From positions 1 to 64,000 of IMG/VR virus record IMGVR_UViG_3300013112_000677: a stretch of DNA of 64,000 nt; one strand, 5' to 3'. Below the pieces are notes generated by a model, which had not been told where the DNA came from, ran no database searches, and saw only the letters and a list, made by a program, of their open reading frames with translations. Shown in pieces: positions 16,769 to 64,000 of the stretch. The position numbers and the translations under genes were made by a program. The DNA comes from a virus. Position 1 is the first letter of the stretch. Every line of letters begins with the position of its first letter.

Positions 16769-17157
16769 CGCAGCTCAGCCGTGAGGATGTCGCGGAGGCG
16801 CCCCAGCACGTGGTCGAGGTCTTCCCCCTCGAGGCCGACGTCGGTGAGCGTGGGGGTGATCTCGCGGCAGATGCGGAGCCCCACCTCAGCCGAGCCCTTG
16901 TAGTCCTTGAGGTCCTGGCCGTGCTTCCGCTGCAGCCGCTGCTCCGCGACAGTCTGTCGTATCTCGGCCGCCAGGCTGGCTGGCGGGCGGCACGTGCGGA
17001 GGAACTGGGTGAGGAACTTGTCGCTGGGCAGCCTCCCCTTGTTCTCGATGAGTCGGATGTACTCGGTGGAGCAGCCCATGGCCTTGGCCAGGCTCGCGTG
17101 GCTCGCGTAGTGGGCCCGGTTCCGGATCTCCTTGAACATGGTGCTGACGCTGGGCAT
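16765..17157 (-). CDS. XRE-family helix-turn-helix regulator
   Basis: FKEIRNRAHYASHASLAKAMGCSTEYIRLIENKGRLPS. Confidence 0.8.
   Translation of the reverse strand: MPSVSTMFKEIRNRAHYASHASLAKAMGCSTEYIRLIENKGRLPSDKFLTQFLRTCRPPASLAAEIRQTVAEQRLQRKHGQDLKDYKGSAEVGLRICREITPTLTDVGLEGEDLDHVLGRLRDILTAELR
16947..16959. repeat. Dispersed palindrome copy 1, CGACAGTCTGTCG
   Basis: Exact 13-mer inside the XRE gene. Confidence 0.9.
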
Positions 17158-17516
17158 CACCGATCCCTCTGTGGGAAGTACCGCTTCCGGGGAACGCTGC
17201 GCACTGCGTAGTGGAGTTCCCGGATGAGAGCATCCAGGGTCTGGATGCCAGTATTGTACGCCAGCTTGGTGAAGAAGGTCTCCTCCTCGCTGTCGATCTC
17301 TTGCACCGCAGGGAGGTCTTCTTCCTGCGGGAGCTCTGCGGGCACCTGGCTGCTGGCTGCTACCCCGTGTCGTGCCCGAAACACGGGTCCGCATGCGCCC
17401 TTGTGGCCGCAGGAGTACCGGCACTCGTAGGTCGAGTCGTCGTACTCCTTCCCGAAGCAGGCTGGGCGCCCTACCTGCTGCGTGTTGAGGTCCCTGAATC
17501 GCAGTGTTCCTGGCAT
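17157..17516 (-). CDS. Cys-containing hypothetical protein, first gene of the replication operon
   Basis: 119 aa; CFGKEY...CRYSC...C; GGAG RBS. Confidence 0.7.
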   Translation of the reverse strand: MPGTLRFRDLNTQQVGRPACFGKEYDDSTYECRYSCGHKGACGPVFRARHGVAASSQVPAELPQEEDLPAVQEIDSEEETFFTKLAYNTGIQTLDALIRELHYAVRSVPRKRYFPQRDR

Positions 17517-17553
17517 AGATTCTCCGGCGTTTTCTGGGTTACATCTTGGTCGT

Positions 17554-17559
17554 CTTATG
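17554..17559 (-). promoter_or_regulatory. CATAAG motif, candidate phage-RNAP promoter (copy a)
   Basis: Intergenic, 38 nt upstream of a minus-strand start; same hexamer at 23829, 44072 and 48878. Confidence 0.55.
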
Positions 17560-17583
17560 CCAGGTTTTCGGCAGGTGTTTCGC

Positions 17584-17613
17584 TTGACTATGCGCCAGGC
17601 CGATGCCTACGAT
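17584..17613 (+). promoter_or_regulatory. Sigma70-like promoter
   Basis: TTGACT-N18-TACGAT upstream of ATG 17646 (GAGGAGG RBS). Confidence 0.6.
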
Positions 17614-62587: not shown

Positions 62588-62600
62588 GAAGGAGGCGTGG

Positions 62601-62924
62601 TTGGGCGGACTCAAGGGCCTCTTCACCCGTGGCGCAGGAGAGGTGGCAGAGGCCGCTGCCACGAAGACGCACCCCAAGGCGGTGACGGACATGACGGCGG
62701 CGATCAGGGCACGACAGGCTGCGGGCATCCCCGCTGGAGTGAGCAGGACTGCTGCGCCACAGCCGACGAGGAGCCTCGATGACTACTTGAGGTGGCAGCA
62801 GGCCCAGCCGGTAGCCACCCAAGTGAGGGCGAGCACACCTGGTCGCCTCCGTGGCGGTGAGTGGATTGAGGGTGGTACTTCCGTGCAGACGGTGATGCGG
62901 CCCCCGGCCCGCCCGCGGTTCTAG
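62601..62924 (+). CDS. Hypothetical protein, or +1 frameshift extension of 60419..62587
   Basis: 107 aa from TTG; the frame is open upstream through FDLEKEAW. Confidence 0.55.
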   Translation: MGGLKGLFTRGAGEVAEAAATKTHPKAVTDMTAAIRARQAAGIPAGVSRTAAPQPTRSLDDYLRWQQAQPVATQVRASTPGRLRGGEWIEGGTSVQTVMRPPARPRF

Positions 62925-62932
62925 GAGGTAGG

Positions 62933-63832
62933 TTGATCGAGGTCACCAACATCAGAGTCCGGTCGTTCGACCTGGATCGACTCGACCTCTGGTGGGAGAT
63001 CTCGACCACCTCGGAGGACCCGCAGGACTACGACCTGTACGTGCTGCGGTCCACCTCCCCGCTGGGCCCCTACGAGCCGCTGCATGATCGGCCGCTGAGC
63101 GACGTCTACCACTTCCGCGACGCGCGCATGGGGCTGATGCACAACTGGCGTCAGCTCTACTACCGCATCCGGATGGTCAACCGGGCCACCGGGGAGACCA
63201 GGGACTTCCCCGAGGACCGGGGCGCCTCCGTGGATCCCCCGCTGGCCCTGGACGCCCTCGAGGCCGCTCGGTACGAGGAGATCCTCTTCAAGGAGAAGAT
63301 CGGCCGCCCGTGCTGGCTGTTCAAGAAGCGCACCTTCGGTCCGCGCTGCCCCCACTGCTTCGACGAGCGCCTGCAGCGGGCGAAGACCAAGCGCTGCCCG
63401 GCGTGCTACGGGGCCAGCTACCTGCACGGGTTCATGTCCCCCATCCAGTTCTACTGCCAGATCGACCCGACGACGCAGAGCAACCAGCAGTCGACCAAGA
63501 GCGAGCAGCGGGAAGAGCGCACGATGGCGCGGTGCATCTTCTTCCCGCCCGTCACGCCCGAGGACGTCATCGTCGAGCTGGAGAACGTGCGCTGGCGGGT
63601 AGCCAAGGTGACACCCACCAAGCGCCTGGGGTCGGTCATCCACCAGGAGCTCACCCTGCGCCGTATCCCGGAGGGCAGCATCGAGTACACGCTGCCCCTC
63701 GACGTGGACCTGGAGAACTTCGTGGGCGGGCCCGACCGGGAGTTCACCAACCCGCAGAACCTCGAGAACGCGGACCGGCCACACATGGACATCCGCGACC
63801 TGGCCGCCGCATACAGGTGGGTGACACGATGA
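62933..63832 (+). CDS. Putative neck/head-completion protein (FN3-like N-terminus, Zn ribbon)
   Basis: 299 aa; CPHC...CPACYG; GGAGG RBS, TTG start. Confidence 0.6.
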   Translation: MIEVTNIRVRSFDLDRLDLWWEISTTSEDPQDYDLYVLRSTSPLGPYEPLHDRPLSDVYHFRDARMGLMHNWRQLYYRIRMVNRATGETRDFPEDRGASVDPPLALDALEAARYEEILFKEKIGRPCWLFKKRTFGPRCPHCFDERLQRAKTKRCPACYGASYLHGFMSPIQFYCQIDPTTQSNQQSTKSEQREERTMARCIFFPPVTPEDVIVELENVRWRVAKVTPTKRLGSVIHQELTLRRIPEGSIEYTLPLDVDLENFVGGPDREFTNPQNLENADRPHMDIRDLAAAYRWVTR

Positions 63833-64000
63833 AGCCCTCGATGGCCGCCTTCCACGATGAGCTGAGCCGCATCCTCTCCTTGGAGAAGGTGGCGGACCAG
63901 CACGAGGACGACAGTCTGTCGCCGGACGAGCCGCTGCCCCGCGAGGCCCCGTCGGGTGCCTACGAGTTCGCGCGCTACGGCATCGCGGAGCCCCTGGTGC
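63829..64000 (+). CDS. 5' part of a putative internal virion protein (runs off the window)
   Basis: MKPSMAAFHDELSRILSLEKVADQ..., ATGA coupling. Confidence 0.7.
   Translation, partial: MKPSMAAFHDELSRILSLEKVADQHEDDSLSPDEPLPREAPSGAYEFARYGIAEPLV
63909..63921. repeat. Dispersed palindrome copy 8
   Basis: CGACAGTCTGTCG read as GAC AGT CTG TCG. Confidence 0.9.

Follow-up and report, generated by a model that had tools for sequence, protein, structure and literature searches.

A 13-bp palindrome, CGACAGWCTGTCG, recurs about every 6 kb in a 64,000-nucleotide stretch of phage DNA, namely positions 1 to 64,000 of IMG/VR record IMGVR_UViG_3300013112_000677, referred to below as the window. These palindromes are best read as candidate sites at which an orphan protein of the ParB/Noc/KorB family, encoded by the phage itself at 44084..44968, binds or loads, in an array akin to that of KorB and its operator OB; we hold this reading to be reasonably probable, and infer binding from co-occurrence, covariation, and the placement of sites. 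The window, rich in GC (67%), comes from a large uncultured phage, and its record measures 73,940 bp in full, with a CheckV completeness of 40%. The record of the window phage is designated G000, and the genomes and contigs compared with it are designated G001 to G020.

The palindrome array in the window

An earlier reading of the window from its letters alone (the sequence-only reading) had listed eight exact copies of CGACAGWCTGTCG together with the gaps between them. An exact count returned the same coordinates and gaps, with copies beginning at 16947, 22567, 29538, 41867, 46686, 52962, 59158, and 63909. The expected count in dinucleotide-preserving shuffles is 0.01, and none of 100 shuffles reached eight, in line with the earlier claim that the number exceeds chance. 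The intervals of 1–16.9 kb and 29.6–41.8 kb, reported as free of the motif, proved to be so even with one mismatch allowed: a one-mismatch search of the window gave no additional copy. Positions 64001–73940, the rest of the record, hold zero copies. Gaps in the window are more even than random (coefficient of variation (CV) 0.39, p = 0.009), as the proposal of regular spacing had it. Of the further claim that copies extend to palindromes of 15–17 bp, the 15-bp form stands, GCGACAGWCTGTCGC being formed by four of the eight; no conservation was seen in the flanks of the eight copies past one G/C on either side. On the plus strand, the central base is T in six copies and A in two.

Seven of the eight copies are found within genes, in various frames and on either strand, as had also been claimed. 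Copy 1 (CGACAGTCTGTCG, 16947..16959) falls within the minus-strand gene of an XRE-type helix-turn-helix (HTH) protein, where it is read R-Q-T-V, and copy 7 (59158..59170) is read A-T-V-C-R within a gene of 163 amino acids (aa). The other five intragenic copies are read as xxC GAC AGW CTG TCG, giving D-S/R-L-S: copy 3 (29538..29550, D-R-L-S) within the gene of a 2043-aa fused RNA polymerase, copy 4 (41867..41879, D-S-L-S) within a 1934-aa gene, copy 5 (46686..46698, D-R-L-S) within the large terminase (TerL) gene and 1.7 kb from the start of the ParB-like gene, copy 6 (52962..52974, D-S-L-S) within a 573-aa gene, and copy 8 (63909..63921, D-S-L-S) within the plus-strand gene 63829-64275. Only copy 2 (22567..22579) is intergenic; it occupies a 45-nucleotide (nt) spacer between convergent genes, 21 nt past the stop of a 663-aa gene.

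The motif uses codons that are rare in the window. Among the codons for Ser, AGT has a share of 3.1%, and among those for Arg, AGA has 1.7%; ACA (4.1%), ACT (4.4%), CGA (7%), and TGT (11.7%) are used by it as well. The motif spells four of the five D[SR]LS peptides found in the gene calls. When synonymous codons were shuffled within genes, 0.03 copies were regenerated versus five observed, the test taking in the five copies inside the analysis's own gene calls. Such a codon-shuffled null had been suggested by the sequence-only reading; together with the low codon shares, it bears out the view that the constraint acts on the DNA. It could nevertheless be supposed that the copies arose by chance, followed from the usage of codons or peptides, or came from a repeat of the host, and the preferred frame does use the common codons GAC, CTG, and TCG, which is the sole point for such an explanation. 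Both kinds of shuffle refute a chance origin, the rare AGT and AGA codons are employed, and the motif differs from one related phage to another and is missing from the complete genome G004; we give this explanation almost no probability. The palindrome array is real, and stronger than was first stated.

Another repeat in the window, the 11-mer GAGAAGGTGGC, occurs seven times on the plus (coding) strand (18075, 30130, 32195, 35883, 50131, 52342, and 63883) and recurs in G002 and G003 too. The copy at 63883 encodes E-K-V-A close to the beginning of a small gene's product, and the repeat may accordingly stem from a recurring peptide motif and not from a signal in the DNA.

The orphan ParB-like protein

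The gene of the candidate reader, at 44084..44968 on the minus strand, is divergent from TerL. Its product (N-terminus MTDKQPVIPFDAIIV) is laid out as an N-terminal ParB fold containing GMRRYLA, an HTH with the recognition helix VSTRHVQRL, a basic linker, and C-terminal helices. Pfam gave a weak HTH match only (HTH_23, residues 149–174), with ParB_N falling short of E 0.01; PHROG 1033, a "ParB-like partition protein," matched at E 8e-22. Over residues 15–193, which cover the N-terminal domain and the HTH, a profile built from four orthologs matched chains of ParB and Noc (E 2e-7 to 1e-5). For an AlphaFold2 (AF2) model of the protein (pLDDT 80), the top Foldseek matches were ParB-CDP, Noc, and KorB (prob 1.00). 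The HTH follows directly after the N-terminal domain and aligns with that of Spo0J (gMSPAEIATTLGVSTRHVQRL versus gLTQEEVARRVGKARSTVANAL). The sequence-only reading had named this gene a ParB, and profile and fold searches agree with it in predicting a true ParB/Noc/KorB-fold protein. Residues G61, R63, R64, and A67 are invariant among orthologs (GMRRYLA versus GERRxRA), and the box II arginines are kept.

The absence of a ParA from the window had likewise been noted. ParA-type ATPases (PF13614 and PF01656) had no match in G000–G003, the complete G001 included, and the controls matched in 14 of 14 genomes. A tblastn search of cultured phages with the ParB-like proteins gave one weak match, and a second search gave none. 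A Tet_JBP search, concerned with a link to T-dioxygenase, found no match, but its positive controls gave none either; the ParBs that have been tied to T-dioxygenase are without a DNA-binding domain (PMC13229309). A small-terminase or pac-site role of the ParB-like gene is unlikely, as the gene lies distant from TerL in G010 and G020.

Turnover of the motif among close relatives

Close relatives carry either the window's motif or a symmetric variant of it. G002, whose polymerase is 93% identical to that of the window phage, has six copies of the window's motif at unchanged places, and three further copies are found in G017, which is probably another piece of the G002 phage. In G001 (CheckV complete, 201,921 bp; polymerase 67% identical), there are 0 copies of the window's motif and 15 copies, genome-wide, of CGACAC-W-GTGTCG (spelled out, CGACACTGTGTCG), which represents a symmetric G-to-C change beside the centre. 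The gaps in G001 are again even (CV 0.41–0.42, p = 0.0002–0.0005), and the central base is divided 7 against 8 between the two orientations. G003 (65% identical) has three copies of CGGACAG-N-CTGTCCG, in which the outermost arm base is changed symmetrically.

One position is common to G000, G001, and G003: a copy stands 21–42 nt past the stop of the 663-aa gene, in each case as the lineage's own variant. The remaining positions are mostly non-homologous between these lineages, and the copies within TerL of G000 and G003 are ~235 residues apart. Because the site at the 663-aa gene has been kept in place with each lineage's variant, site and reader would appear to have co-evolved in place, the other copies being subject to turnover. 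The ParB orthologs diverge fast (29–38% identity, versus 71–73% for TerL), and their recognition helices vary along with the motif (VSTRHVQRL, KSTRHVRRW, and KDVRTVQRA). Two more orthologs of the ParB-like protein (86% and 82% identity) were found, and a metagenome scan for further contigs gained one 4-kb contig.

The complete genome G004 has neither the palindrome array nor the TerL-adjacent ParB gene. Six copies of ACGAG-CTCGT in G004 were judged to be a codon-usage effect. The G004 helicase ortholog (119488-121500) is 670 aa long, versus 451 aa in the window; its insert, which starts CFVAGTLVD and ends VVHNC, looks like an intein.

Symmetric changes keep base pairing, as a hairpin would, and in relatives many copies stand just past stop codons. 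The palindromes might on these grounds be DNA or RNA hairpins, cruciforms, or sites of some other protein, with a part in priming, packaging, nicking, termination, or processing, or as targets of the HTH_17 protein (48889-49584), whose gene is conserved near TerL and which had earlier been named as an alternative binder. Copies in one genome, however, share a single sequence and not mere pairing, their flanks are not conserved, and those of the window lie mostly deep in long genes. The core hairpin amounts to −3.2 kcal/mol and none of the eight copies is followed by a T-run, unlike an intrinsic terminator; a palindrome nicked on both strands would be expected to break the genome. The HTH_17 protein occurs in motif-less G004 and G005 as well. 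Explanations of this type are, in our estimate, very improbable.

Arrays in other phage lineages

Across the broader phage group, 80 TerL and 80 helicase loci were read. Among the 80 TerL loci, only the three from the window's close clade, G001, G002, and G003, combine a TerL-adjacent ParB gene with a repeated palindrome of this type. No such ParB gene was found by tblastn in the other 77, and a clear array was present there only in L139/L140, with a different palindrome. Three other lineages carry arrays of their own. TATTAAC-S-GTTAATA is found in G010, G012, and G013 (17 copies in 42 kb, 9 in 36 kb, and 9 in 33 kb, respectively), TATTAGC-S-GCTAATA in G015 (30 in 143 kb), and TATCACA-S-TGTGATA in G016 and G020 (9 in 51 kb and 24 in 109 kb, respectively). 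Spacing is even in every one of these records (p 1e-5 to 0.02). With a broader ParB profile, a ParB-like gene was detected in each of the three lineages, and such a gene therefore accompanies the genome-tiling palindrome in six of the six lineages found. Co-occurrence and covariation of the motif with the ParB HTH, which the sequence-only reading had put forward as a check, are thus both seen in related phages.

In these lineages, copies also stand close to the ParB-like gene itself. G010 has one copy in the gene's promoter region (7297) and another 5 nt past its stop; G015 has a copy in the promoter region, at 55537; and in G020 a copy lies 84 nt upstream of the ATG. It is very unlikely that the three promoter-region placements arose jointly by chance, each having a probability of a few percent by a rough density-based estimate. 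The ParB-like proteins of G010 and G015 are orthologs, 33% identical, and a single symmetric change separates the motifs of the two lineages. Within the G015 motif, the inner 11 bp, TTAGC-S-GCTAA, are identical to the inner part of the KorB OB core, TTTAGCGGCTAAA.

The XRE-type protein of copy 1 (16765..17163, minus strand), encoded directly upstream of the helicase gene, had been named as another alternative binder. Dimeric XRE proteins bind short palindromes, and here the protein would be a dimeric repressor with dispersed, stoperator-like operators, the ParB-like gene being merely one of its targets. XRE orthologs likewise occupy the place just upstream of the helicase gene in G000, G001, G003, G017, the G010-type phages, and G015, motif-less G004 has none, and copy 1 lies within the XRE gene in both G000 and G017. 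Against this, no XRE homolog was found in G016 and G020, which together comprise 160 kb with 33 sites, and G018 has an XRE ortholog and no array. None of the XRE genes has a site at its 5′ end, versus three ParB-like genes with one. In addition, 12 of 12 arm positions are invariant, including those adjacent to the dyad, which would fit a ParB/KorB-type reading better than a 434-type reading. The case for the XRE protein as the reader is weakened by these results, and we regard it as unlikely.

The two proteins might instead form a KorB/KorA-like pair, with the palindromes as loading points of the ParB-like protein and the small HTH protein as the factor that would lock or stall it at certain promoters. 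In the RK2 system, the KorB clamp is latched by KorA, itself a small HTH protein (PMC11790492). Both genes are found in G000–G003, the G010-type phages, G015, and G018, and neither in G004. The G016/G020 phage, however, has the array and the ParB-like gene with XRE undetected, and co-occurrence is all that speaks for the pairing, which we consider quite unlikely.

Clustered palindromes were also seen in G006/G007, an unrelated phage with a 28%-identical ParB, which was set aside as uninformative. At ~34.5–55.5 kb of G006, 12 copies of GAAAACTC-NN-GAGTTTTC are clustered in 21 kb, and there are also 7–12 copies of CGCAAG-NN-CTTGCG; these palindromes are clustered and untiled.

Placement of copies

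Of the eight records tested, seven have 33–70% of their copies in intergenic spacers, which make up 7–21% of the DNA (p 3e-3 to 3e-13), and the genes that harbour copies are longer than average. The window's record has the fewest spacer copies, either one of eight by manual reading or two of eight by automatic gene calls (borderline, p = 0.055). Because copies are enriched in spacers and evenly spaced, the placement says that a site is needed every few kilobases and is put into coding sequence only where no spacer is at hand. With its genes of 1000–2000 aa, the window is the coding-heavy extreme of this rule. Clustering near a par locus, as is typical of parS, was not found: sites extend across 47 kb in the window and all 202 kb in G001. 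The natural distances between sites run from 2.5 to 13 kb.

Genomic context

The 2043-aa RNA polymerase (23890-30021) is a beta/beta′ fusion, with PHROG matches to beta and beta′ along its length, and its nearest cultured relatives are ~30% identical (Vibrio phage D69 and Salmonella phage Arash). A megablast search of cultured phages with 24 kb of the window gave no match. The major head protein is encoded at 57098-58222, and a replication module occupies 1–16.8 kb on the minus strand. A search for a tyrosine integrase found none in G000, G001, G015, G016, and G020.

TerL (45025-48036) contains an intein at residues ~106–519 with a LAGLIDADG endonuclease domain. This intein is absent from TerL of G001, G003, and G004, for which the tblastn match is split into two parts, residues 32–132 and 510–1003. 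The palindrome as a homing target of the intein's endonuclease was rejected, as the TerL site lies ~35 residues past the intein and arrays are also found in intein-less relatives.

An HU/IHF-type protein is encoded at 5701-5994 on the minus strand (Bac_DNA_binding, E 1.5e-20). It is present in G001, G003, and G006 and was not found in G004, and is another DNA-architecture protein in common with the motif-bearing G001 and G003.

Discussion

On the favoured reading, a dimer of the ParB-like protein would read the two 6-bp arms of the palindrome through its HTH domains, as KorB does on the 13-bp core of OB. Selection would maintain one perfect site per few kilobases; sites would go to spacers if these are present, and into coding sequence, by means of rare codons, where long genes leave gaps. 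With sites nearby throughout, the protein could reach the entire chromosome, and the sequence of the site and the specificity of the protein would drift jointly between lineages. Any spreading or sliding from the sites is conjectural. As to purpose, we favour genome-wide regulation or organisation of the phage DNA; self-marking and late-gene silencing, put forward by the sequence-only reading, are conjectural.

The sequence-only reading had cast the palindromes as ParB loading sites. Its choice of reader has gained from the predicted fold, from the ParB-like genes of all six array lineages, and from the promoter copies in three of them, while binding as such is deduced and loading through a clamp is uncertain. 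Several observations count against the ParB-like protein as reader. The motifs for CTP are only partly kept, box III reading LDVDRKAYT in place of ENLQRxDL with loss of the E/N of ENLQR, and because this box is replaced, though G-x-R-R-x-x-A is invariant, a nucleotide-dependent CTP-clamp step is uncertain. In the window's own clade, no site is present in the ParB promoter, the nearest being 0.8–1.7 kb off, and a promoter copy equally fits regulation of the ParB gene by another reader of the motif. The XRE gene is found in five of the six motif lineages and has a helix that varies too, and the covariation draws on few lineages. Finally, the complete G018 has a canonical ParB and an XRE protein yet no dispersed palindrome, which indicates that a ParB alone does not predict an array. 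In G018 (192 kb), the ParB, at 128464-129339, has GERRFRA and a Pfam ParB_N match, and there are single-copy palindromes only, at the start of the ParB gene; it may represent a few-site state.

A wider idea is that of a widespread, as yet undescribed system of chromosome marking, in which virulent phages of ~150–200 kb would tile their genomes with a private palindrome at a maintained spacing so that an orphan ParB coats, compacts, localises, or silences their own chromosome only. Site and reader would co-evolve so fast that cross-recognition is lost even between close relatives, which would serve to discriminate self from non-self, i.e. from the DNA of the host and of co-infecting phages. We put this forward as possible but doubtful.

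ParB-family proteins are known as centromere binders (ParABS), as a nucleoid-occlusion factor (Noc), and as a global regulator of a plasmid (KorB). If the favoured reading is true, a partner-less ParB with sites tiled over the genome of a virulent-type phage would be a further use of the ParB fold. The natural specificity variants, in which single symmetric base changes accompany changed recognition helices, could reveal how a ParB-type HTH reads DNA. The constraint on spacing is such that even essential genes have had to take up rare codons, and it would provide a quantitative handle on the range of the protein from its site.

Comparison with known systems

In our comparison, KorB-OB of plasmid RK2 emerges as the closest known system, and Noc with its binding sites (NBS) as the closest orphan ParB. 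RK2 has 12 OB sites, and KorB/OB was reportedly treated by Khare et al. in 2004. KorB is a ParB-family CTP clamp, and its operator, counted as 16 bp, has the 13-bp palindromic core given above and lies near to or far from promoters (PMC11790492). The likeness comprises a ParB-family protein with an HTH, a palindrome of 6+1+6 bp, copies dispersed at kilobase intervals with some far from promoters, and the inner 11 bp that OB has in common with the motif of the sister lineage G015. A small HTH protein co-occurs in both systems, XRE here and KorA there, and a KorA-like role of the XRE protein is suggested by this co-occurrence. Unlike RK2, the present system belongs to a phage of ~190 kb that has no ParA partner and shows no sign of lysogeny; its sites tile the genome evenly and lie in coding sequence, its specificity diversifies fast, and its CTP motifs are only partly kept.

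Noc of Bacillus subtilis is likewise an orphan ParB paralogue without a ParA, with many palindromes dispersed over the chromosome, and the ParB-like protein has some of its best matches, in sequence and in fold, among Noc chains. In contrast, NBS is a site of even length (16 bp), Noc uses an N-terminal helix to tether DNA to the membrane, and the array described here is in a viral genome with regular spacing.

Among phages, the cluster O mycobacteriophages contain >30 invariant 17-bp dyad repeats, TGTTCGGNNNCCGAACA, of unknown function, and their ParB-like domain protein (Corndog gp90) was not connected to the repeats by the authors (PMC4351075). They share with the window phage an invariant palindrome that occurs many times genome-wide and is partly intragenic, a ParB-like domain protein, and the lack of an integrase or parAB. 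They differ in having arms and spacer of 7+3+7 and about one repeat per 2 kb in a 70-kb siphovirus, with no even spacing or covariation reported. The ends of the repeat, TGTTCGG-NNN-CCGAACA, resemble those of chromosomal parS (TGTT...AACA). The reading favoured here may also explain these unexplained repeats, for which a cultured system exists.

Two further phage systems have many dispersed cognate sites, some of them intragenic, for one phage-encoded DNA-binding protein. In cluster A mycobacteriophages, which are temperate, these are the stoperators, asymmetric sites that follow the direction of transcription and are recognised by the immunity repressor, whereas the site in the window is a perfect palindrome that is neither asymmetric nor transcription-oriented. 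Phage N15 has only four dispersed SopB sites and, unlike the window phage, a ParA partner (SopA) and the life of a plasmid prophage.

Surveys of phages have recorded many orphan ParB-fold proteins without assigned sites (PMC12704722). Our literature search found no paper on an evenly spaced, genome-tiling array of ParB-type sites in a phage. The layout itself is known from RK2, and its description for a phage without sign of lysogeny was not found in the literature; what is unusual here is the constraint on spacing and the fast co-evolving specificity.

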